From an uncultured bacterium (GTDB lineage: Bacteria > Bacillota_I > Bacilli_A > RF39 > UBA660): a stretch of 64,000 nt of DNA. The stretch covers positions 13,498 to 77,497 of the forward strand of contig CAUERX010000002.1 of the NCBI GenBank assembly GCA_959020415.1, written 5' to 3'. The position numbers were made by a program, and so were the translations under genes. Of the stretch, positions 11,805 to 47,395 are shown piece by piece. The notes under the pieces are model-generated. The model ran no database searches and was not told where the DNA came from. It saw only the letters and a list, made by a program, of their open reading frames with translations. Every line of letters starts with the position of its first letter. Positions within the stretch are counted from its first letter, which is position 1.

Positions 11805-12593
11805 CTACTTTTCTTCCTCAGTAGTTTCAGTTTGAGCTTCTGCGTTTTCTAAAGATGCTTCGGTTTCTGCTTCTTGAACTTCAGTTTCTACTGTTTCAAC
11901 AGTTTCTGCTGGAGTTTCTTCAGTAACCCAAGAAATTAATTCAGGTCTTTCGTTAATCTTGTTAGGTTTTTTAACAGCACTTTTAATGATTACTAATCCT
12001 TTTTTAGGTCCAGGAATGTTTCCTTTAACTAAAATTACATTATTCTCAATATCTACTGCAACGATTTCTAAGTTTTGAATAGTTACAGTGTTAACTCCCA
12101 TATGACCTGGTAATTTTTTACCTTTGAATACACGCATTGGTCTCATTGTTCCCATACTACCTGGACGTCTGTGGTAGTGTGAACCATGCCCCATAGGGCC
12201 TCTGTGTTGTCCGTGTCTCTTAATAACACCTTGGAACCCTTTACCTTTTGAAGTTCCAGTTACATCAACGACTTCTCCTCTAGTAAAAATATCAGCTGTG
12301 ATTTCTTGTCCTAAAGTATAGTCTTCAACATTAACACCTCTAATTTCTTTAAAGAAGCGCTTAGGTGTAGTTTTTGCTTTAGCTGTATGACCAGCTGAAG
12401 CTTTTGTCGCTAACTTTTCTCTCTTTGTGTCAAATCCAAGTTGGATAGCATCATAACCATCATTAGCTTTTGTTTTAACTTGAGTAACAACATTTGGAGT
12501 TACTTCAACAACAGTTACTGGTGTTAATTTGCCTTCTTGGTCAAACACTTGAGTCATACCAATTTTACGACCTAAGATTCCTTTCATTTTCAT
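11805..12593 (-). CDS. rplC: 50S ribosomal protein L3 with a ~45-50 aa acidic Glu/Thr-rich C-terminal extension
   Basis: 262 aa; core [16 protein letters not shown]...; tail ...[39 protein letters not shown]. Confidence 0.85.
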
Positions 12594-12598
12594 TCCTC

Positions 12599-12907
12599 CT
12601 ATAATTTAATTTGAATATCAACGCCGCTTGGAATATCTAGATGCGATAAAGCATCGATAGTCTCCTTGCTTGGGTTATTGATATCAATAAGTCTTTTGTG
12701 TGTTCTTTTTTCGAATTGCTCACGTGAATCTTTGTCTTTGTGAACAGCTCTTAAAATTGTTATTTTTTCAACTTCAGTTGGTAGTGGAATTGGTCCACTT
12801 ACTTCCCCACCAGTTCTTTTTACAGTCTCAACGATTTTAGCACAAGCTTTATCCAAACTTTTGTGTTCAAATGCCTTAAGTCTGATACGAACTTTAGTTT
12901 TAGACAT
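12599..12907 (-). CDS. rpsJ: 30S ribosomal protein S10
   Basis: 102 aa [19 protein letters not shown]. Confidence 0.9.
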
Positions 12908-13041
12908 ATTGTATCCTCCTTTCGCCTATATCTTCAGTATAGACTGCTCCGTGTAAAAACCCGAGTATGCCGTTGCAAATGTTTGCAACTTAACCTAGCG
13001 TCTCGGCAACCTCACACATCATCGCACGCCACACATTCAAA

Positions 13042-13070
13042 AGTATACATGATTATTCTATGAAAATCAA
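13042..13070 (-). promoter_or_regulatory. candidate sigma-A promoter of the S10 operon (TTGATT-17-TATACT on the minus strand)
   Basis: -35 is the reverse-complement of 13065-13070, -10 the reverse-complement of 13042-13047, with a 17-nt spacer; followed by a ~130-nt GC-enriched leader (12908-13040). Confidence 0.5.
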
Positions 13071-13161
13071 GGGCTTTTTAGAACTTTTTTCAATTTATTT
13101 GACATTTTTTGATGTTGGTAAATTTCTAATCTTTATTAAGTACTTCTGAATTTAAAAGTAT

Positions 13162-13190
13162 TTGACTTTATATTTGTTTTGTGTTAGAAT
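13162..13190 (+). promoter_or_regulatory. candidate sigma-A promoter TTGACT-17-TAGAAT for the 13222 gene
   Basis: TTGACT 13162-13167, TAGAAT 13185-13190, 17-nt spacer, ~30 nt upstream of the ATG. Confidence 0.55.
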
Positions 13191-13221
13191 ACACCATCAT
13201 ATATTAAAAAGGGAAAGGTTT

Positions 13222-14163
13222 ATGGAAGAAAATATTGAAAGACGTAGATTTTTAAAATTGGCCGGAACTACTGCACTTTCTGTGGCATTCGGAAGTTTTT
13301 TAGAAGGCTGAGCTAAAAAGGAAGACAATATAAGTGCTATTTCAATTGAGAGATGTTTTCACGATGAAAATAATGAAGGAATTGATGATACGTTTGAGCA
13401 AATAGTTGAAAGTAGTGATGAAAAGATTGCAGAAATCGCTAAAATTGAAGCGTATGTAAATTTTATAAAAGTGTGCAATGATAATTTTACAGATTCGGTT
13501 GTTAAGCCAAGCACTAAAGAGAATATCTTGGATAGGCTTCAACAAGGGGAGGAATACTCTTTGGCAGATATTGAAACTCTTACTAAAAAAATGGACAGAT
13601 TTCAAGAACTTAGCCAAGATGAAGCAATTAAAACTGCTTCTGGGGAGCAAGAAGAATATTATCACATTGCTAGAGATTTATATCGTGACTTTTTAATTAC
13701 AAATGATTATCTAAAGAGACAGTCGTTTGATGTACTAGCTAATTTTGGACTTGATTTAACTAAAGCTATTTTAATTGATACTGCTGGTTTTAGTGGTACT
13801 ATTGATAATGTTACTATTCCTCAACGTCCTTCTACTTCGGATCCTACTTTACAAGACTATAGCATTTCTTATGAGAATGATGGATATGTAGCAAAATTAT
13901 CTGTTCCGTCGGGGTCTTGTGTTTATGATATTGTTGATAACGTATATAAATGTCAAAATTCACATACCAGATATAACCAAGGTGAGTTTGATGGAGCGTA
14001 TGATAATGATGCCATAGAATTAATCCAAACAACTATTGATTCATATAAGACCGGAACTGCTTTAAGTGCTGAAATTACTGAACCTAGTTTCTTATCTTAT
14101 AGTGATTGTTTAAAATCAAATTCTCGCGAAGAAGCAGGTAAAGCTTTAGTGGCTAAATTATAG
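13222..14163 (+). CDS. hypothetical exported protein. N-terminal twin-arginine (RRRFLK) signal region 13222-13308, in-frame UGA at 13309-13311, then an uninterrupted frame to 14163 (ORF-track CDS 13471-14163)
   Basis: ATG 13222 with AAGGGAAAGG RBS; MEENIERRRFLKLAGTTALSVAFGSFLEG-TGA-AKKEDN... in frame with the 230-aa ORF; possible pseudogene, recoding or error. Confidence 0.45.
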
Positions 14164-23006: not shown

Positions 23007-23441
23007 TTAATCCACTCCTTTTGCACATATTTTAATAAACTCTTTAAATATATTGTTCATATTTTCGTCTTTTTTATATAAATATTCTGGGTGGAAGCGA
23101 AGTCCCATGTAAAACTTTTTACTTTCTGCTTCTACTCCGTCAGTATATCCGTCATTGCAAAAAGCGACTTTTTTTAAACTAGGGGTAACGTTTACGACTT
23201 TTTTATGTATTGAGTTAACCATTATATTTTCCTTTTTTATAATAGAATACAATTTAGATCTTTTATTTATTTTTATATTATGAACATAATCTTCCCCTGG
23301 TTTCCGATGATCCTCTGGATTTATTATTTTTTTATTTGTGCCGCCTAGAGCTCTAACAATGTTATTTTGTCCAACACAAAAGCCCATAATTGGTATATCT
23401 TTATCATATGCATATTTACAAATCCAACTTTCTAAAATCAT
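23007..23441 (-). pseudogene. 5'-truncated class I glutamine amidotransferase (peptidase C26 / gamma-glutamyl hydrolase-like) remnant
   Basis: 144 aa beginning only 17 residues before the catalytic-Cys motif (PIMGFCVGQ); the ~75-residue N-terminal half expected for this family is absent. Confidence 0.5.
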
Positions 23442-24275: not shown

Positions 24276-25043
24276 CTATATATTGATGTCAAATAGAGAT
24301 AATGCGTTTTGCGTTGTAATATCTAGTGTTTTTTCCAAATTTATACATTTTAGCTCTGCTATTTTTTCAGCAACATATTTAATATTATTTGGTTCGTTTT
24401 TATGACCTCTAAATGGTTCTGGAGTTAAATATGGACTATCTGTTTCTAAAACAAAATGTTTTAAATCTAGTTCTTTAACTATTTCTTTTAATTTCTTTTC
24501 GTTTTTAAAAGTTAAAATGCCACCAATTCCAAAATATGTATTTAAGGGAATAAAGCGCTTTGCCATCTCTAGACTGCCACTGTAACAATGAAGGTCACAT
24601 TTAATATTTTGATTTTTATATTCTTTTAAAATATTGTATGTATCTTCTATCGCTTCGCGACTATGGATAACAATAGTTTTGTTATATTTATTTGCAAGGT
24701 CTATTTGTTTAATAAACAAATTTATCTGCTTAGCTTTATTGTCTTTAGTATAGTAATAATCAAGCCCTATTTCACCAACACCAACTATCTTGGGATGTTT
24801 TAGACTGTTTTCAATTTTCACTAAATCTTCTTTAGTGTATGTACTAGCAAACTCTGGATGTATACCAACTGTCCCATAGATATTTGGATATTTATTACAA
24901 AGTTTTATTATATCGTCTACATCATTAGGACTAGCAGTACTTACTATCATAATATTATTTCCCATATTTTTTATGACTTCTTCTCTATTTTCATAATCTT
25001 CTTTGCCTAAATGGCAATGTGTATCTATCATCATTTTTATCAC
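24276..25043 (-). CDS. tatD: TatD-family metal-dependent DNase/hydrolase
   Basis: MIDTHCHL..., 255 aa; metG-proximal context as B. subtilis yabD. Confidence 0.85.
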   Translation of the reverse strand: MIKMMIDTHCHLGKEDYENREEVIKNMGNNIMIVSTASPNDVDDIIKLCNKYPNIYGTVGIHPEFASTYTKEDLVKIENSLKHPKIVGVGEIGLDYYYTKDNKAKQINLFIKQIDLANKYNKTIVIHSREAIEDTYNILKEYKNQNIKCDLHCYSGSLEMAKRFIPLNTYFGIGGILTFKNEKKLKEIVKELDLKHFVLETDSPYLTPEPFRGHKNEPNNIKYVAEKIAELKCINLEKTLDITTQNALSLFDINI

Positions 25044-25077: not shown

Positions 25078-25281
25078 TTAATGAGTCTTAATGTAAATAA
25101 ATCTTACGAAACATCCAATCAAAAATATTAAATAAGCAAAATCAACAAGGGTAAATTGACTGACTAAATTAATTGTTAAAACTAGTATTATACCTATAAA
25201 TAACAAACTAATGATACTACTTTCCCTATCTTTCGTAATCATTGTCTCCCCTTCTATACAAGTCCTATTTAAATATAACAT
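25078..25281 (-). CDS. small hypothetical membrane protein (67 aa)
   Basis: two hydrophobic helices. Confidence 0.4.
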   Translation of the reverse strand: MLYLNRTCIEGETMITKDRESSIISLLFIGIILVLTINLVSQFTLVDFAYLIFLIGCFVRFIYIKTH

Positions 25282-25608
25282 TTAATGTTAATATTTTCAA
25301 TTGTTTCTATTCGACAATTTCCTACACTTTACAACGTTCGCGTAAACTTATTGCTAATTTTAAATAATCTTAGGTAATTATAAGTTAAACGATAGTAGTT
25401 TATATTGTTCATAAATCGATAACAATTTTATTATCCAGTTTAAATTTTATAGAACCTTCAGATTTCTGTAATCCTTAAATTTTTGTGTTTTTGAAATTAG
25501 TACTAATGATTTTTCGTCATTAATATAAGTAAAATACATCATATTTTCATTGATTATATAATACATTTCTTAAATTGTTGTCAAAAGAAAAGTCAAAATA
25601 ATTTGACT

Positions 25609-27444
25609 TTAAAATCTTTTTATCATTCGTTTTATTTCAGAATCTAGTTTAGACTTCATTATACAATCAGCAAAGCCATCTTTTAAATAATGGAGTTTAA
25701 TTCCTTCTTTGTTATCATTTATCATAACAACGACAGGTGTTTTAAAACCTTTGATTTTTTGTAATTCTTGAAGAATGGCAAGAGCGCTATAATTTGGCAT
25801 TTCATCATCTAGAATAATTAAATCATATTTTGCCTTAGCTCGCACTTTCTCAATACAATCTCTACCAAATATAGAAGAATTTACGACTATATCTTCATTT
25901 TCGAATTTCTTTACTATTTTTTGTAATTCCATATCATCATCATCAATAACTAGAATTTTTTTATTGCCATATATAGTCTGTTCATAATTTTCAAGTTTTT
26001 TGCTAAGTTCTGTTTCTTCGGTTTCAACTATTTTTTGATCTAAGACAACAGTAAAAGTGGTTCCCTGATTGATTTCACTTTTGACCATTAAACTACCACC
26101 AAGCATATTAATAATTTTTTTAATGCCTTTAAAATCTAATTCTTTTTCATCAAGCTTATCAATATCTATTCCTTTTAAATTTTCTGGATTTGTACTTAAA
26201 ATGTCATTCACTTTATTGACATCCATACCTGTACCAGAATCTTCAATATTAATAATTAATCTACATATATTATATTTTATAATAGCACTAACATCCAAAT
26301 TGATAAATCCATCTGTTGTATTTTGAACGGAATTCATGAGTAACGATGATATAGCTTGTTTTAATTTTATTGCATCACCATATAGGAAATCCGGAATCGT
26401 ATTACTCATAGTAAAATTATATTTGATTTCTGGATTTATATCTGCTTTTATCCGATAGCTAAGTTCCTTAAATAAATTGCCAACATTATATTTGTTTTCA
26501 AAAATTTTAATTTTTTGAGTATCCATACTCGAAATGTTTAAAGCACTATTTATAATATAGTCAATTTGATTACTATAATTGTTAATTATCATTGAATCGT
26601 GCTTCAATGATTCAACATCTTTAGATTCTATCATTTCCCGGCTAATTGTAACGATTTGTCTTACCGGATTTTTAATATCTTGAGTTATTCTAAATAAGAA
26701 TTTCGAAGTATCTTCGTTGGATTTTTCTATAAGTTTTTTATTTTTATATAATTCGCCAATTAGTTGGGCATCAGGATTTTCAATAGTATGAAACATTAAT
26801 GCGGTTATAAATGCAAATGTTGAATTAATTAAAATTATCCCCGGGTTAACATTTCTAATTATCAAAACAATAATCATTAATACTATTAATACAAACAATG
26901 GATAATATTGTTTATTCCTAATATTCTTCCTATTTTTTAGCACACAGAAAATGTCAAAGATAATTGAAAATCCGCCAAAAATTACTAATAATGATGTTGC
27001 TGGACCATAACTATAAACATAATTACCATCATTAAAGTATTCTAATGGTAAGATTAAGGTTAACGCAAACAAGATCAAATATATAATACCAGCAACTATA
27101 ATAAATCTACGTTTATATTTATCAAGTTCTTTTTTTATTTTATGATGCTGACTAAAAGTTATATAAAATATATAAAAAGTAAAAACAAATAACCAGGTTA
27201 ACATATATATTATAAAAAATCTGTTACAAATTATACACATTAAAGTATTAAACGTCGTGGTACCATTATTATATGTAAAATAACAACACGCTAATTCTAA
27301 CAGTAAACCAAAAACGTTAATTACAACTAATATGCTATATATTTTATTTTCCATGTTATCAATTCGTCTTTTAGAAAAATATAAAATCAATAACATAATA
27401 CTATAAACTAAACAACATGTTATTACTGAAACACCTATGACCAT
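25609..27444 (-). CDS. membrane-bound hybrid sensor kinase-like protein (polytopic N-domain, HisKA-like region, HATPase_c, C-terminal receiver domain). The H-box appears to carry Gln in place of the phospho-accepting His
   Basis: 611 aa; ITQDIKNPVRQI aligns with the (S)HELRTPL H-box; N/G boxes LLMNSVQNT, DSGTGMD, GGSLMV; receiver KKILVIDDDD...LIILDDEMP. Confidence 0.7.
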   Translation of the reverse strand: MVIGVSVITCCLVYSIMLLILYFSKRRIDNMENKIYSILVVINVFGLLLELACCYFTYNNGTTTFNTLMCIICNRFFIIYMLTWLFVFTFYIFYITFSQHHKIKKELDKYKRRFIIVAGIIYLILFALTLILPLEYFNDGNYVYSYGPATSLLVIFGGFSIIFDIFCVLKNRKNIRNKQYYPLFVLIVLMIIVLIIRNVNPGIILINSTFAFITALMFHTIENPDAQLIGELYKNKKLIEKSNEDTSKFLFRITQDIKNPVRQIVTISREMIESKDVESLKHDSMIINNYSNQIDYIINSALNISSMDTQKIKIFENKYNVGNLFKELSYRIKADINPEIKYNFTMSNTIPDFLYGDAIKLKQAISSLLMNSVQNTTDGFINLDVSAIIKYNICRLIINIEDSGTGMDVNKVNDILSTNPENLKGIDIDKLDEKELDFKGIKKIINMLGGSLMVKSEINQGTTFTVVLDQKIVETEETELSKKLENYEQTIYGNKKILVIDDDDMELQKIVKKFENEDIVVNSSIFGRDCIEKVRAKAKYDLIILDDEMPNYSALAILQELQKIKGFKTPVVVMINDNKEGIKLHYLKDGFADCIMKSKLDSEIKRMIKRF

Positions 27445-27563
27445 TTTTTACCTCCCTAACTATTTACATTATAACACGCCTATTTTTAGAAGTAAATTTA
27501 TTATCTTAATTTTATAATAATAATAATAAAAAATAATGAGCTAATTACTCATTATTTTTTTAA

Positions 27564-29531
27564 TTATTGATTACTAATCAAGGCACCTCTACGATAAACA
27601 TGCTTCCCTTCTTTTTCAGCCTTTGATTTGGCTTCAGCATCTTCACGAAGGGCTAGAACATCTATCTTACCAGAGTTTGTTAATGGTAAAGAAGGTAAAC
27701 ATTCATAATCAAGTGGGCATTTATAATCAGCAAGTTCGCTTTCACACATTAAATTAGCGGTATCTTCAATGTCACGAATATCCTGAGGATGATCTTTATC
27801 TAATAAAGTATAATATACTTTTATAACAGTTCCTCTTTCTTCATCTGGATCATCATAAACAATGGCCTTACAAGCATCTATTCGACTATCTTTTAAAATT
27901 ACATCTTCAATTTCCAGTGGAGTTATCTTAAAACCATCATGACCGACACTAACATATTTTTCTCTATCTATAAAATAAACATATCCATCCTCATCAATAT
28001 AACCAAGATCCCCTGTGTGAAGCCATTCCGTACCATCACTATGTGTTCTTTTTGCAATATTGGTCGCTTCTTCGTCGTTTTGATAACCTACCATTACATT
28101 ATCACCTTGAACGCATAACTCACCAATCTGATCTTCAGTCACATTATCTATTTGATCATTCGGGACATATTTTAATTCTTCATATTCACCAGTTTTTTCA
28201 TCTTTTTTAAATACTCCCATATTTTCTAAAGGTAAAATTTGTCCAACTGATCCAATTTTTACACGATGGTTACCAGGCGCTACGCTATTAGCACCGGTTC
28301 CTTCACTTTCGCCATATCCTATATTTATAACTAGCTTGTCTTCTTGATCGCCATAAAATCTTGCTTTATCAAAATCTTTTGGTCTTTCTATTTGTTTTAA
28401 TTGCTCATTGGCACGAGCTAACTGTGTTTTATTTAATGAATCTCCACCAACAATGAAATTAATCATACTATGTGGATTTTCTTTCCATTCTTGGCTATTT
28501 AAAAGAGCAGATACATGATTCGGAGCACAAGCCAAAGTATGTGGATCAAATCTTACTAAGTCTTCAACCATTTGTAACTGATAAGGTTTTTTAAGACTCA
28601 TAGCCGTTGGATCTGGGTTAAGCCTAACTTCATTGCCTAAAGCAAATGGTAACATAGAACCATCGGCCATTCCATAAGCAATAGAAATTGGCATAATATC
28701 ATACCAGCGAGCTTCTTCTGGAAAAATTCCTGTTAAAATACATTGGGTTGCTGCAGTAATAATATTTCTACTAGATAATACTACGTTTTTAGGTAACCCT
28801 GTTGTTGATCCTCCAGTTGATACTGTAGCTACTGGCATATCAGATGTATAATCTTGGAAAACTAAACCACGACTATGAGAACCATCTTTTATAAATCTTT
28901 TCCAAGAATAGTAATCTCGAAAATTACTTTTTTGTCTATCAAACATGGCAGCACGGATAGTATCATTTTTTAAAATAGAATTTAATGATATTGAACTACT
29001 TGCTGGCAAACCGATAACCGTTTTAGCTGGCGTATTTGCAATAACATCACCTATTTTGTCTAAAACGTGTTGTTTTCTATACTGTTTTGTTCTTCTATTA
29101 TAGGTTTTTACAACACCATCAAAGCCAATTACTAAGTCAGAATTGGCTTTGTTGATTTTGTGTTCAATTGCTTTTTCTCCATATCTTGGATCAACTAAAC
29201 TAGCTACTGCACCAATTCTACTAGCACCAACTAATATATAGAAAGCTTCCGGTAAAGTAGGCGCAACAACGGTAACATAGTCTCCTTCTTTTACCCCATA
29301 GTGGTCTAAAGCTAAAGCTACTTGCGTACTTTTGTCTAGAAATTTTTGATATGAAATACGATTATCAAAATAATTTATAGCCGGTAAATGTAGGCGCCCT
29401 TCATTTTGATAATGAAGAAAATCATATAGAGTCACGTCTGGAATTTCACGTGATAACATTTCTGGTTCATAAAAGTCTTCATGGTTTCTATCCTTTGACG
29501 GATATCCAGTTTTTTCTTTTTGCATACTCAT
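27564..29531 (-). CDS. AMP-binding (ANL superfamily) adenylate-forming enzyme, acyl-CoA synthetase-like
   Basis: 655 aa; TGGSTGLPK, GYGESEG and WLHTGDLG motifs. Confidence 0.8.
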   Translation of the reverse strand: MSMQKEKTGYPSKDRNHEDFYEPEMLSREIPDVTLYDFLHYQNEGRLHLPAINYFDNRISYQKFLDKSTQVALALDHYGVKEGDYVTVVAPTLPEAFYILVGASRIGAVASLVDPRYGEKAIEHKINKANSDLVIGFDGVVKTYNRRTKQYRKQHVLDKIGDVIANTPAKTVIGLPASSSISLNSILKNDTIRAAMFDRQKSNFRDYYSWKRFIKDGSHSRGLVFQDYTSDMPVATVSTGGSTTGLPKNVVLSSRNIITAATQCILTGIFPEEARWYDIMPISIAYGMADGSMLPFALGNEVRLNPDPTAMSLKKPYQLQMVEDLVRFDPHTLACAPNHVSALLNSQEWKENPHSMINFIVGGDSLNKTQLARANEQLKQIERPKDFDKARFYGDQEDKLVINIGYGESEGTGANSVAPGNHRVKIGSVGQILPLENMGVFKKDEKTGEYEELKYVPNDQIDNVTEDQIGELCVQGDNVMVGYQNDEEATNIAKRTHSDGTEWLHTGDLGYIDEDGYVYFIDREKYVSVGHDGFKITPLEIEDVILKDSRIDACKAIVYDDPDEERGTVIKVYYTLLDKDHPQDIRDIEDTANLMCESELADYKCPLDYECLPSLPLTNSGKIDVLALREDAEAKSKAEKEGKHVYRRGALISNQ

Positions 29532-29713
29532 TTATATTCCCCCTTCGATGCTATAGTAATATATTTTACTACTTGATATACAACCTCTTTTTATTTCATT
29601 TTACTATAATTATAATATATCACCGTCCTTCTTTCTGTCAAGTCCTGTTTTTCAATAGTGTCATTTGTATTGCCTAAATTTGGAATATAAAAAAGCCCTT
29701 TGGCTTTTCTTGT

Positions 29714-31264
29714 TTAATTATTGATTTCCTCGAGTTTTTTTTCTTTATCGATTCTAGCAAACAAAACCTCTGGTTCATTTAGTTTAATTCCGCTATCCAT
29801 ACCATCAAAATTATCTACTGAATCAATAGTCCTATTTTGGGTATTTAATTGTTTAAATATCTCGTCAGATGTTTCTGGTAAGAAAGCTTGTAAAAATACG
29901 GTTGCCGTTCTAATTGCTTCAAGCAAATTATAAATAACAGTTTTTAATCTTTCTTGTTGTGCTTCGTCTTTGGCTAATACCCATGGAATTGTTTCATCAA
30001 TATATTTATTACTTCTTCGATAAATGTCAAATATGGCAGCAAGGGCTTCTGATACTTTTAGCTCGTTCATTTTAGTTTCAACTTTATTTTTTAAATCTTT
30101 AACTAAGTTTATAAGTTCATCGTCTTCGGCTTTTTTAGCTAAAGGTTCATAAACAATACCACCAAAGTATTTATGGGCCATAGTAATAGTACGGTTGACT
30201 AGGTTACCTAAGGTATTGGCTAAATCAGAATTGTATCTATCGATTATTAAATCCGCTCCAATATTTCCATCATGGGATATTCCTAATTCACTTAATAAAT
30301 AATATCTAACAGCATCTGTACCAAAATAGTTTACTAAATCATCAGCATATAAAGTATTTCCCTTTGATTTACTCATCTTTTCACCTTTTGAATCAACGAA
30401 AAATGGATGAGCAAAAACTTGTTTTGGGATTGGTAAATTTAAGGCTTTTAACATAATTGGCCAATAAATTGAGTGAAATCTTAAAATATCCTTACCAACT
30501 ACATGGACATTTGCTGGCCAATACTTATTAAATTCATTGTCGTTTGTTAAATAACCGGCAAAAGTAATATAGTTTGTTAAAGCATCTAACCAAACGTAGA
30601 TAACATGTTTTTCATCGAAAGGAACTTTTATTCCCCAGTCAAAAGTGGTTCTTGAAACACATAAATCATCTAGCCCTTTATCAATAAAATTAAGCATTTC
30701 ATTACGTCTAGTACTTGGAACAATAAAATCAGGATTATCTAAAATATGTTTTTTTAACCAATCTTCGTATTTTTTTAATTTTAAGAAATAAGCTTCTTCA
30801 CTAGTTTGGTGGACTTTTCTTCCACAATCTGGACATTTACCATCTACGAGCTGAGACTTAGTAAAGAATGATTCACATGGGGTACAATAAAGACCTTCAT
30901 ACTTTCCTTTGTAAATATCACCTTGTTCATAAAGCTGCTTAAATATTTTTTGAACGACCTCTTTATGATTATTATTGGTTGTTCTGATAAAGCGATCATA
31001 ATCAACATTAACTGTTTTTAAAATTCTCTTGACTTCTAGCGCAATTTCATCAACAAATTCTTGGGTTTTTTTATTTTGTTCTTCGGCTTTTAATTCAACT
31101 TTTTGGCCATGTTCATCCATTCCAGTTTGAAAAATAACATCATAGCCAGCTATTTTTTTATATCTGGCAATCGCATCAGTTAAGACTGCTGTATAGGCAT
31201 TACCAATTTGAGGTTTGCCTGATGCATAAAATATTGGGGTTGTTATATAAAATGTTTTATTCAT
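29714..31264 (-). CDS. metG: methionyl-tRNA synthetase (short form without C-terminal tRNA-binding domain)
   Basis: start at MNKTFYITTPIFYASGKPQIGN; KMSKS motif; zinc knuckle CTPCE...CPDCG. Confidence 0.9.
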   Translation of the reverse strand: MNKTFYITTPIFYASGKPQIGNAYTAVLTDAIARYKKIAGYDVIFQTGMDEHGQKVELKAEEQNKKTQEFVDEIALEVKRILKTVNVDYDRFIRTTNNNHKEVVQKIFKQLYEQGDIYKGKYEGLYCTPCESFFTKSQLVDGKCPDCGRKVHQTSEEAYFLKLKKYEDWLKKHILDNPDFIVPSTRRNEMLNFIDKGLDDLCVSRTTFDWGIKVPFDEKHVIYVWLDALTNYITFAGYLTNDNEFNKYWPANVHVVGKDILRFHSIYWPIMLKALNLPIPKQVFAHPFFVDSKGEKMSKSKGNTLYADDLVNYFGTDAVRYYLLSELGISHDGNIGADLIIDRYNSDLANTLGNLVNRTITMAHKYFGGIVYEPLAKKAEDDELINLVKDLKNKVETKMNELKVSEALAAIFDIYRRSNKYIDETIPWVLAKDEAQQERLKTVIYNLLEAIRTATVFLQAFLPETSDEIFKQLNTQNRTIDSVDNFDGMDSGIKLNEPEVLFARIDKEKKLEEINN

Positions 31265-32210
31265 GTTTTTCTTCCTCCTTTGGGTCTTCAGTGAACTCAA
31301 TATCATTAAAAATTAATTTAGTTATGTTTTTTAATAAGTTTTCTGGTAGTGGACTGCCTGAAGCATTTTTATGACCACCTCCGCCATATTTTGCTGAAAA
31401 AATAGAGAGGTCTACCTTGTTGTCACTACGATAACTAATACTTTTTGAAACATTAATTATAATAACAAAATCTAAATTGGGATTTTTGCTAGCTAAATAA
31501 TGTCCTAAATCACTACGATATTTTTCAGCATAGACAATTCCTACTTGGTGGCCATCTAATTTGGCTTTGATGACTTCTTTTTCTCTACTTTCAAGATAAT
31601 TATTCATTTTATCTTTTTCTAATTTTATTAAGAATAGTTCCTGATCATTATATTTAAATTCTTCATTATTTTCTAAAAATTTTAAAAAGTAATCAATGTA
31701 ATTATCACGGCCTAAAATGCTAAATAGGGCATCAATGTTATGGGCTATTTTATCGTCTTCCGTTTTAAAATCATAAGTATCAATAAGACGAACCTGGTTT
31801 ACTAACCCTTCTGTTACTTTTTTGTGAAGAATTTCATTATTAGAAATACTCTTTAAATAATTATAATAAATACTGGTTGCGCTTTCTTTTTGACTTTCGG
31901 TTTCATCGATAACTGTAGAAAAATCGTATTTATTCAAAGAAAGTGCACTTTTATGATGATCAAACAATTTAACTTTTTTCTTCCACTCTTCACTATTATT
32001 AATTTCAGCAGCTAATTGTTCAGACATCGACAAATCAATAACATGAATTTCATCATATTTATCAATATTTTCCTTTAAGTTTATGTCGACGTCTTTGGGA
32101 TTTAATAATAATCTATCAAAATTTTGATAAACTAGTTTGGCTAATATTATTGGGGTAATTCCATCCGGATCAGCTATATGTGTAATTATAAGTAATTTTT
32201 TATCTTCCAT
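31257..32210 (-). CDS. DHH/DHHA1 phosphoesterase (NrnA-like nanoRNase/pAp phosphatase)
   Basis: ITHIADPDG, FDHH and GGGGHKNASG motifs; start at MEDKKLLIITH. Confidence 0.75.
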   Translation of the reverse strand: MEDKKLLIITHIADPDGITPIILAKLVYQNFDRLLLNPKDVDINLKENIDKYDEIHVIDLSMSEQLAAEINNSEEWKKKVKLFDHHKSALSLNKYDFSTVIDETESQKESATSIYYNYLKSISNNEILHKKVTEGLVNQVRLIDTYDFKTEDDKIAHNIDALFSILGRDNYIDYFLKFLENNEEFKYNDQELFLIKLEKDKMNNYLESREKEVIKAKLDGHQVGIVYAEKYRSDLGHYLASKNPNLDFVIIINVSKSISYRSDNKVDLSIFSAKYGGGGHKNASGSPLPENLLKNITKLIFNDIEFTEDPKEEEKHE

Positions 32211-32694
32211 TATGTTCCTCCTTATTAGTACTGCCAAAGCCACCATTTCTTTCATTTGTAATTTCGTCTTCATCATCTGTTATTAAATACTTAGTAAAAA
32301 TTCCTTGAACAAAGTTATCACCTTTATTAAAATGAATTCTTTCAGTACCTTCATTTTGAATTTTTACAAATATATGACCTTCATTATTTTGATTATTATA
32401 GTAATCACTATCAATAATCCCAACTTGATTACACATTCGAATGTTATATTTAAAGCCAAGGCTACTTCTAATGAAAATCATTAATACTTCATCACTTTCC
32501 ATACACGCTTTTATCCCGGTTGGAATCTTTTTTGTTTCACCAGGTAATATATCTAGATCAAACAGTAAACTAAAATCGTAACCAGCGCTATATTTTGTAC
32601 TTCTTTTTGGCAGGCTGTATTCGCTATATTCCTGCTTTGTTAACCCTGTATCTTTAATAAATTCATCTAAACTTATTTTTTCAAATTTACGCAT
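32200..32694 (-). CDS. dut: dUTP diphosphatase (trimeric dUTPase)
   Basis: SAGYDF, RSSLG, GIIDSDY and GGFGSTN motifs. Confidence 0.8.
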   Translation of the reverse strand: MRKFEKISLDEFIKDTGLTKQEYSEYSLPKRSTKYSAGYDFSLLFDLDILPGETKKIPTGIKACMESDEVLMIFIRSSLGFKYNIRMCNQVGIIDSDYYNNQNNEGHIFVKIQNEGTERIHFNKGDNFVQGIFTKYLITDDEDEITNERNGGFGSTNKEEHNGR

Positions 32695-32696
32695 TT

Positions 32697-32925
32697 TATC
32701 TCTCCTTCAATAAAAAAACGTCCTTAGTATAAGGACGTGATTTGACGTGGTACCACCTTAATTTGTAAGTAAATACTTACCTCAAACGTTTAACGCACGT
32801 TATCGTTCTAACCTAAATATCGATTAGAAGGCTCCAGAGCCATTCGAAATAGTCACCTTGTTTATTTACACCAACCATAAACTCTCTATAAAGTCACCTA
32901 TTTTTCTCTCTTTCGTCGCTTTTCT
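32697..32925 (-). ncRNA. T-box riboswitch leader (own promoter TTGAAG-17-TATAAT at 32932-32960; T-box sequence plus intrinsic terminator) in front of the dut-nrnA-metG operon
   Basis: minus-strand read: AAUUAAGGUGGUACCACG (T-box consensus AAUUAGGGUGGUACCGCG), then terminator ACGUCCUUAUACUAAGGACGUUUUUUU; ~230-nt leader. Confidence 0.7.
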
Positions 32926-47167: not shown

Positions 47168-47184
47168 TTTATCACCTAAATAAA

Positions 47185-47259
47185 AGGTACACACGTTTAG
47201 TGACCCTTAAGGCTGCTGTCTTCCGACTCTGACCTGGTTCAGATATAAACGTTGTACCT
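47185..47259 (-). ncRNA. ffs: small (4.5S-type) signal recognition particle RNA
   Basis: minus-strand read AGGUACAACGUUUAUAUCUGAACCAGGUCAGAGUCGGAAGACAGCAGCCUUAAGGGUCACUAAACGUGUGUACCU; domain IV motif matches E. coli CCAGGUCAGGUCCGGAAGGAAGCAGCC; 14-bp closing helix; tadA-adjacent as B. subtilis scr. Confidence 0.8.
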
Positions 47260-47395
47260 AAATAATAATATAATATTTTAATAAAAAAAGCAACTGTAAT
47301 AATGTTTTATATGAAATATTATTTATATTTGTATATTTTGGTGATTAAAGTGAGTTTTTGTGGATTTAGTCGGGCTAAAAAATAACATATCTCAA

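Follow-up and report, generated by a model that had tools for sequence, protein, structure and literature searches.

A seven-helix kinase-like membrane protein without a phospho-acceptor histidine is encoded beside an adenylate-forming enzyme in uncultured gut Bacilli

Pseudo-histidine kinases are already known as a class, with few described cases, namely DivL, PsmA and RetS-like mechanisms. Here we analyze two adjacent genes from an uncultured bacterium (GTDB lineage Bacilli_A, RF39, UBA660) that lie in a stretch of 64,000 nucleotides of contig CAUERX010000002.1, hereafter the window. The upstream gene encodes a 655-residue adenylate-forming enzyme of the ANL superfamily and the downstream gene a 611-residue protein with a seven-transmembrane (7TM) domain, a kinase-like core and a receiver domain, in which glutamine takes the place of the phospho-acceptor histidine of the H-box. 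In DivL of Caulobacter (PMC4211667; PDB 4q20), the acceptor histidine is likewise replaced, by tyrosine, the catalytic domain now serves as a sensor or scaffold, and the structure is among those that match our model of the 611-residue protein; unlike that protein, DivL has neither a receiver nor a 7TM sensor and works in the CckA/DivK cell-cycle network. A study of PsmA from Streptomyces (PMC12963549) describes a conserved kinase core and receiver in which the H-box histidine is gone (Glu, Asp, Gln, Val or Tyr by species), degenerate ATP-binding motifs and action through protein-protein interaction. PsmA differs in having DivIVA at the hyphal tip as its partner and no ANL partner, in belonging to an unrelated lineage, and in the variability of the replacing residue, since glutamine predominates in the family described here.

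DesK of Bacillus subtilis is a polytopic Firmicutes membrane kinase that controls a lipid-modifying enzyme and perceives the lipid bilayer through its transmembrane (TM) segments, features that the present pair may share. It is, however, a HisKA_3 kinase with a functional histidine and no receiver, and acts on transcription via DesR. RetS of Pseudomonas aeruginosa is a membrane hybrid kinase with a periplasmic sensor domain that signals without autophosphorylation by binding the kinase GacS. The DHp-CA region of RetS (PDB 6dk7, 6dk8) is the best PDB sequence match to the 611-residue protein (E = 6e-15), but RetS keeps its H-box histidine (ISHEIRTP in the alignment) and has tandem receivers and no ANL partner.

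The nearest functional precedent, by analogy, is the Rpf system for diffusible signal factor (DSF) in Xanthomonas. There, one gene cluster encodes the multi-pass hybrid kinase RpfC (HisKA-HATPase-REC(-Hpt)) and the ANL-family fatty acyl-CoA ligase RpfB (PMC4504480), and canonical relatives of the window protein share the cytoplasmic layout of RpfC, including the Hpt domain. According to the same paper, RpfC senses a fatty-acid signal, and the title of a reference within it points to a second signalling mode, a receiver-domain-protein interaction instead of phosphorelay (PMC4504480). Such a mode would be a precedent for a kinase module that controls an acyl-metabolism enzyme by contact. The partner in this mode is reportedly the synthase RpfF. 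There are also differences: RpfC has 5 TM helices and a functional histidine, whereas the window protein has 7 TM helices and no such histidine; rpfB shares with rpfF an operon that is convergent to rpfGHC and does not lie directly upstream of the kinase gene; and the hosts are Gammaproteobacteria as opposed to gut Bacilli, with no orthology shown at the sequence level. Clustering of the open reading frames (ORFs) of the 81 loci surveyed below, with no dedicated search run, found no conserved neighbour of the RpfF crotonase or RpfG HD-GYP type. Given this result and the different TM domain and lineage, membership of the Rpf/DSF system is not supported.

The two genes and their flanks are arranged as follows, at the coordinates that an earlier, sequence-only reading had given for the pair; the ORF map agrees with them exactly.

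29714-31306, reverse strand: metG, the upstream flank of the gene pair
27564-29531, reverse strand: ANL gene, 655 residues (ORF and Pfam)
25609-27444, reverse strand: putative pseudo-histidine kinase gene, 611 residues, end coordinate including the stop codon (ORF and Pfam)
24276-25043, reverse strand: tatD, past a 565-nucleotide gap after the kinase-like gene

We began with the architecture of the 611-residue protein. Its parts map to the window as listed here, with model confidence given as predicted local distance difference test (pLDDT).

26782-27444, reverse strand: 7TM membrane domain, residues 1-221, seven helices with a beta-hairpin at residues 135-146 (AlphaFold2 model, pLDDT 79)
26770-26781, reverse strand: E222-N223-P224-D225 (ENPD) motif at the cytoplasmic end of TM7 (family alignment)
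26539-26709, reverse strand: DHp-like helical hairpin, residues 246-302, with a degenerate H-box (alignment and model)
26020-26409, reverse strand: degenerate CA (HATPase_c) domain, residues 346-475 (Pfam HATPase_c and motif census)
25612-25965, reverse strand: receiver domain, residues 494-611 (Pfam Response_reg, 47 bits, cut-off 30.2; alignment to 6ont)

The full-length AlphaFold model (pLDDT 77) contains seven TM helices, DHp helices 1 and 2, an alpha/beta CA domain whose lid loop (residues 424-437) is of lower confidence, and a standard receiver fold, and its cytoplasmic part matches the structures of HK853, WalK, DivL, RetS and GacS. The 6-7 TM helices proposed from the sequence thus resolve into seven, accompanied by the short beta-hairpin. 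TM7 is a single helix (residues 206-273) that runs through the ENPD motif into DHp helix 1. The 7TM domain had no match in Pfam, neither to 7TMR-DISM nor to other curated membrane-sensor profiles. Pfam recognized HATPase_c (residues 356-470, 42.9 bits) and Response_reg (residues 497-608, 47 bits) in the protein. The HisKA profile (PF00512), against which the sequence-only reading had suggested a check, had no match even at E ≤ 1; canonical relatives, those with an intact H-box, score 48-65 bits.

The loss of the phospho-acceptor is clear from the alignments. In a phmmer search of PDB sequences, residues 247-469 aligned to the DHp-CA regions of RetS and HK853, and the alignment at the H-box is unambiguous: FLAKISHEIRTPM in RetS is matched by FLFRITQDIKNPV in the window protein. 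Gln255 lies opposite the histidine of RetS, HK853 and the canonical paralogues, which read MSHEIRTPLNAI at this column, in agreement with the proposal from sequence that glutamine had replaced it. Its codon (CAA, 26680-26682) is one third-position change away from a histidine codon. The protein contains five histidines, none conserved in the linker or DHp, and when every linker and DHp column (residues 226-345) was scanned in two alignments, none had histidine in 20% or more of the homologues. A conserved histidine elsewhere in the dimerisation helix, the observation that had been named as decisive against the proposal, was therefore not found in residues 226-345.

The remaining catalytic features are eroded to different degrees, and here the sequence-only reading, which held that the ATPase N and G boxes and the receiver aspartate had been kept, was correct in part. 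The CA domain retains the N-box Asn371 and the G1 box, D402-x-G404-x-G406, but the G2/ATP-lid box is gone, with EKELDFKGI where canonical relatives have GTGLGLAIT. Against HATPase_c (cut-off 26.4) it scores 42.9 bits; of seven canonical relatives, one reaches 34 bits and the other six 84-100. In the receiver, D501, D502, D546 (25807-25809) and K597 occupy their canonical positions in the alignment to 6ont, but the conserved Thr/Ser at the end of beta-4 has been replaced, by Ile575 opposite the serine of 6ont. The receiver could, in principle, still be phosphorylated.

We next asked how general these losses are. The 611-residue protein has at least 877 homologues in a collection of 5.8 billion proteins, and the best 120 of these (47-95% identity, nearly all about 600-610 residues) were combined with it in an H-box census. 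None of the 121 sequences has histidine at the H-box column, which is Gln in 100, Ala in 14, Gly in 6 and Ser in 1. When one genome was scanned for each GTDB species, at least 578 coding stretches turned up. We analyzed the best 80 loci together with the window, giving 81 loci and 89 copies of the gene; these 80 lie almost all in metagenome-assembled genomes (MAGs) of uncultured gut Bacilli, "Tenericutes" or "Mollicutes" and include two complete chromosomes of 1.3 and 1.5 Mb. Histidine is absent from 70 of the 89 copies (Gln in 54, Gly in 6, Ala in 3 and Glu, Thr, Asn or Ser in the rest), and 19 have a textbook H-box, MSHEIRTPLNAI. The family is larger still when searched by its sensor: a profile of the 7TM domain alone matched 2,711 cluster representatives (50% identity) at E ≤ 1e-3 and 460 at E ≤ 1e-30. 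Of 102 full-length representatives taken from the 150 best-scoring 7TM matches, 81 are His-less and 21 have the histidine, so about four fifths of the top-scoring full-length members sampled are His-less. In source databases these proteins are named only "response regulator" or "hybrid sensor histidine kinase/response regulator".

Loss of the histidine does not come alone. All 19 His copies have H-E-x-x-T, the N-box asparagine and the full receiver quintet DD-D-T-K, and 18 of them have the G1 box (DGG) and the G2 box GTGLGL. By contrast, the G2 box is found in none of the 70 His-less copies and none of the 81 His-less representatives, against 18/19 and 16/21 of the proteins with histidine. The receiver threonine is kept in 19/19 His copies and in 9/70 His-less ones (the column is missing from 4 of the 70), and in 56 of the 70 the Thr/Ser column is Leu or Ile. 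Of the 66 His-less copies in which the receiver aspartate column is present, 27 (~40%) have another residue there. Other features persist: G1 (DxGxG) is present in 87-88 of the 89 copies and the N-box asparagine in 79, the window copy included, and the ENPD motif is shared by His and His-less members alike (E and N in 89/89, P in 88/89, D in 87/89). ENPD, G1 and GG449-450 are close to invariant. These near-invariant positions and the intact ORFs of about 600 residues in at least 578 stretches and 2,711 cluster representatives argue that the family is still under selection.

Mean pairwise identities follow a similar pattern, at 0.29 (His-less) versus 0.30 (canonical) in the 7TM domain, 0.33 versus 0.56 in DHp, 0.38 versus 0.56 in the receiver and 0.45 versus 0.56 in CA, with the segment from TM7 through ENPD to the linker the most conserved in both groups. 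The simplest reading is that constraint has been held on the sensor, on the connection between membrane and DHp and on part of CA, and has been relaxed on the surfaces used in phosphotransfer. His-type relatives have the same 7TM domain and ENPD motif followed by Pfam HisKA, HATPase_c and receiver domains, some with a second receiver and a C-terminal Hpt domain. In a neighbour-joining tree without an outgroup the His copies form one clan, so that a single loss of histidine would be sufficient. We take as simplest that a 7TM relay kinase lost phosphotransfer once and that the resulting pseudokinase then radiated.

Seven His copies are followed by a separate gene for an Hpt-receiver protein, an arrangement seen only after canonical His-type copies. 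Such genes lie directly downstream in L027 (11883-12683), L050, L057, L059, L064 and L074, and L075 carries the gene in duplicate (11847-12680 and 12692-13477); the encoded proteins have no recognizable output domain.

The upstream gene of the pair keeps its catalytic motifs. Its product matches Pfam AMP-binding (2.3e-41, 142.3 bits) and AMP-binding_C (2.5e-8, 35.2 bits), both above thresholds, and motif alignment located the following catalytic residues.

28788-28790, reverse strand: A3 P-loop K248 (...T-G-G-S-T-T-G-L-P-K248)
28302-28304, reverse strand: A5 E410
28008-28010, reverse strand: A7 D508
27963-27965, reverse strand: A8 hinge R523
27666-27668, reverse strand: A10 K622

These residues recur in 69-73 of the 73 co-located ANL enzymes, and the protein should be an active adenylating enzyme. 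Its best PDB relatives are of the luciferase, 4CL and FadD types. All NCBIfam equivalog cut-offs were missed, the best model being PRK06187 (190 bits, cut-off 476), with FadD PRK08974 at 129 bits (cut-off 884). The N- and C-terminal extensions of about 60 residues that had been proposed are not borne out: because NCBIfam acyl-CoA ligase models start to align at residue 7 or 33 and reach 638, the additional residues are mostly internal insertions, with a short charged tail of about 17 residues besides.

Clustering of all ORFs of the 81 loci revealed that the pairing recurs. An ANL gene is the next gene upstream, and on the same strand, in 70 of the 89 copies (gaps 4-284 nucleotides, median about 60), in a set that spans 80 species-level genomes and the window; co-occurrence elsewhere, which the sequence-only reading had proposed to look for, is thus the rule. 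Only 3 of the 971 other ORFs in the same loci encode ANL enzymes, which excludes chance adjacency; with a generous background of 1% the binomial probability is far below 1e-100. In 12 further copies the upstream gene encodes a PF01553 (PlsC/LPLAT-type) acyltransferase, four of them fused to a HAD domain. In two of these loci (L066, 8461-9921; L073, 8410-9954) the partner that replaces ANL is a fusion of a HAD-like hydrolase and a PlsC-type acyltransferase, an unusual architecture. Independent gene calls on a 646-kilobase contig place the same pair between FTHFS and murD. ANL or acyltransferase partners stand beside both His-type and His-less copies, and the association therefore predates the loss of histidine.

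Clustering found no third conserved gene, whether carrier protein, regulator or crotonase, and other neighbour families each occur in 12 loci or fewer. Four of them recur: MurD, a pseudouridine synthase, the Hpt-receiver protein and a cluster that, without a Pfam search, looks ABC ATPase-like. Around the His-less copies, no gene for a canonical kinase, an Hpt protein or a response regulator stands as a conserved neighbour. The murD gene lies directly downstream of the kinase-like gene in L004, L005, L007, L011, L013, L018, L066 and L081/L082, a second recurrent setting besides metG/tatD; in L011 the upstream gene encodes neither ANL nor acyltransferase, whereas L066 has the acyltransferase.

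The ANL enzymes have diverged much further than the kinase-like proteins. Divergence of the kinase-like proteins correlates with that of their ANL partners (r = 0.44; the highest value in 500 permutations was 0.15), but the closest kinase-like relative of the window protein, in L002, is 71% identical and its ANL enzyme only 39%. Tandem ANL-kinase-ANL-kinase arrays occur in L003 (4244-11836), L028 (8132-15472), L016 (2553-10338) and L036 (3955-11809). In those of L003 and L028 the kinase-like copies are 74-76% identical and the adjacent ANL enzymes 23-29%, which suggests that the kinase-like gene alone was recently duplicated or gene-converted. Tight co-evolution of the pair was rejected, as the correlation is moderate and the kinase-like paralogues resemble one another far more closely than their ANL partners do. 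Overall, the data are consistent with one conserved membrane partner that stands beside many ANL specificities.

How might such a pair work? The reading that we favor, with a probability of roughly one half, is that the 611-residue protein is a pseudo-histidine kinase that descends from a 7TM relay kinase and now serves, independently of phosphotransfer, as a membrane sensor or scaffold coupled to the activation of acyl groups, probably those of lipids. Its ancestor would have been a 7TM HisKA-type hybrid or relay kinase that lost autophosphorylation when histidine gave way to glutamine and the G2 box disappeared, and that kept its 7TM sensor, the helical link from TM7 through ENPD to DHp, a CA domain with the N-box asparagine and G1, and the receiver. 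With a catalytically competent ANL enzyme, or in some relatives a PlsC-type acyltransferase, it would form a conserved two-gene module. The 7TM domain may sense a membrane-soluble acyl compound or the lipid state of the membrane, and DHp, CA and receiver may serve as a conformational switch or scaffold in place of a phosphate relay. The switch could then recruit or regulate the acyl-activating or acyl-transferring partner at the membrane, or the partner could regulate the switch, with the receiver aspartate as a possible secondary input or phosphate sink. Observed directly are the architecture, the loss of catalytic motifs together with its spread across the family, and the gene pairing; we infer from them that kinase activity is absent, and the acyl or lipid ligands of the 7TM domain and the protein-protein coupling of the kinase-like protein to ANL are likewise proposed. 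The sequence-only reading had left a choice between a pseudo-kinase and a kinase that phosphorylates differently, and we prefer the former because loss of the histidine is always joined by loss of the G2/ATP-lid box and usually by decay of receiver residues.

Several observations weigh against the pseudo-kinase scaffold. No particular substrate of the ANL enzyme is indicated by NCBIfam, where every equivalog cut-off was missed, and the lipid theme draws only on generic similarity to fatty-acyl-CoA ligases and on the alternative acyltransferase partner. Fold matches of the 7TM domain are weak and of a generic 7TM or G-protein-coupled-receptor-like kind. ANL partners as low as 23-39% identical beside closely related kinase-like copies speak against an interface that co-evolves tightly. 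Both the binding of nucleotide and phosphorylation of the receiver may persist, because G1, the N-box asparagine and the receiver aspartate are kept in the window copy. Finally, transcription of the second gene in this window is possibly separate or attenuated, given the predicted signals listed further below.

The main rival is a modulator of the RetS or DivL kind, in which DHp would form heterodimers with a canonical kinase (a His-type paralogue that shares the 7TM domain is one candidate) or bind a phosphorylated response regulator, and so tune a phosphorelay; the ANL gene would then be only a co-regulated neighbour or target. We consider this unlikely, though the least so of the alternatives. 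RetS provides the best PDB sequence match, DivL, RetS and GacS are among the structural matches, canonical His-type paralogues and Hpt-receiver genes belong to the same family, and the window copy keeps the receiver aspartate and lysine. However, neither the 64-kilobase window nor the conserved neighbourhood of His-less copies contains a canonical kinase, Hpt or response-regulator gene, the receiver aspartate is also gone in ~40% of His-less copies, and such a modulator leaves the acyl-handling enzyme upstream (82/89 cases) unexplained. Absence of a partner regulator from the neighbourhood also tells against a phosphatase or phosphate-sink remnant, which would dephosphorylate a response regulator through DHp or drain phosphate through the receiver aspartate. 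His-substituted mutants of HisKA kinases can behave in this way. Phosphatase activity of HisKA proteins depends on a D/E-x-x-T/N element, as cited in PMC12963549, and the window copy, which reads Q-D-I-K-N-P, retains a D-x-x-N element after Gln255 alongside an intact D501, D502, D546 and K597. But the receiver threonine is lost, and the H+4 position in the 121 close homologues is Lys in 76, Asn in 22 and Arg in 10; as this position is variable, the phosphatase motif is not conserved in the family, and the explanation is doubtful at best.

Conservation of G1 and of the N-box asparagine, in the window copy as in most others, could be taken to indicate a kinase that is still active through an unconventional acceptor or mechanism, be it another residue or protein or direct transfer to its own receiver aspartate. 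We regard this as very improbable: the G2/ATP-lid glycines are absent from every His-less copy, DHp offers no alternative conserved histidine, the N-box asparagine is itself isoleucine in 40 of the 121 close homologues, the HATPase_c score is about half that of six of the seven canonical relatives, and the analogous His-less hybrid kinase PsmA is reported to have had no autokinase activity (PMC12963549). Strongly disfavored is the idea that the adjacency is meaningless, two unrelated genes having been inherited together by chance. Terminator- and promoter-like signals do lie between the genes in the window and the ANL partners are very divergent, but the ANL gene is upstream in 70 of 89 copies, across 30%-identical proteins and many flanking contexts, and the alternative partner is also an acyl-handling enzyme. 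We also entertain, as a long shot, that acyl-adenylate chemistry replaces the phosphoryl relay. Each ANL enzyme would activate its own carboxylate, and the acyl or AMP group would be passed to or read by the pseudo-kinase, with the retained adenine-binding G1 pocket of CA, or the receiver aspartate or lysine, as acceptor or reader. Were this so, the pair would be a two-component-like switch driven by acyl-AMP instead of ATP and histidine, and one 7TM partner with many ANL enzymes, including the tandem arrays, would amount to a metabolite-specific sensor panel in reduced-genome gut Bacilli.

Full-text literature searches found no paper on the family or on the pairing, and PADLOC, which covers known defence systems, matched neither protein. 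A large 7TM pseudo-hybrid family that is paired with diversified ANL enzymes and has retained canonical sister genes appears undescribed. The sequence-only reading had spoken of an undescribed signalling module; the conserved pair and the literature searches agree with this, whereas "signalling" would be an extrapolation and the module is not tied to metG and tatD. As canonical and degenerate members share a sensor domain and a gene partner, the family records a stepwise change from kinase to pseudokinase, for which we propose that the histidine was lost first, followed by the ATP lid, the receiver threonine and then the receiver aspartate. In these uncultured Bacilli, the fixed pairing with highly diversified ANL enzymes suggests that common gut bacteria link membrane sensing to acyl or lipid metabolism, a connection as yet unstudied.

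The sequence-only reading regarded the pair as an accessory insertion between metG and tatD, but the base composition of the pair is ordinary for the window (~28% G+C) and the same placement is found in L002, L003 and L009, whose proteins are 50-71% identical, and partly in L032. These two observations rule out a recent horizontal insertion and indicate that the placement is old in the lineage. The metG/tatD setting is limited to the closest relatives of the window; what defines the module is the pair, wherever it lies. The window contains no second kinase-like copy and no acyltransferase gene.

Some MAGs that carry the locus are labelled Muribaculaceae (L002, L007, L023, L040), Bacteroidaceae (L039), Sphaerochaetaceae (L013), Vescimonas (L003) or Paratractidigestivibacter (L014); the locus otherwise occurs in MAGs labelled Bacilli. 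L002 shows the synteny spoVT-metG-tatD-ksgA, as do the window and Firmicutes. The contigs in MAGs labelled as unrelated phyla are probably mis-binned or mislabelled.

Signals around the pair were called at the level of consensus predictions.

29685-29710, reverse strand: terminator-like hairpin and T-run directly 3' of the metG stop codon (-9.7 kcal/mol)
29614-29641, reverse strand: promoter-like site TTGACA-16-(TG)TATATT upstream of the ANL gene (11/12 matches, consensus match only)
27528-27560, reverse strand: long AT-rich hairpin followed by a T-run directly 3' of the ANL stop codon, a possible terminator or attenuator
27468-27496, reverse strand: promoter-like site TTTACT-17-(TG)TATAAT before the GGGAGG ribosome-binding site and ATG of the kinase-like gene (consensus match only)
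25582-25609, reverse strand: weak AT-rich hairpin and T-run overlapping the stop codon of the kinase-like gene (-8.4 kcal/mol, z = -2)

The whole region between the ANL and kinase-like genes folds with -26.4 kcal/mol (z = -5.3). Because this region contains a hairpin with a T-run and a promoter-like site of its own, the two genes may be transcribed separately.

In the 565-nucleotide gap between the kinase-like gene and tatD lies a 54-residue ORF (25078-25242, reverse strand) with two hydrophobic segments, a strong GGGGAG ribosome-binding site and no match in Pfam. Past tatD, the reverse strand encodes a YabE-like protein with a G5 domain, a glutamine-amidotransferase fragment and ksgA. The fragment is a 144-residue ORF (23007-23441, reverse strand) flanked by the YabE-like gene and ksgA; as it matches only positions 94-219 of 219, the C-terminal half, of the Peptidase_C26/GATase profile, it has the look of a gene that was truncated or reduced to a remnant. 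On the other side of the pair, a T-box leader (Rfam RF00230, 127.7 bits) with a terminator hairpin occupies 32728-32925 on the reverse strand. A dUTPase-like gene (32200-32694), a DHH/DHHA1 gene (31257-32276) and metG lie downstream of it, and from this position the riboswitch appears to control all three rather than metG alone. Read by eye, its specifier region (...CGAAUGGCUC...) has AUG (Met) at the expected place. A small bacterial signal recognition particle RNA (Rfam RF00169, 63.6 bits) is present at 47171-47268 on the reverse strand.

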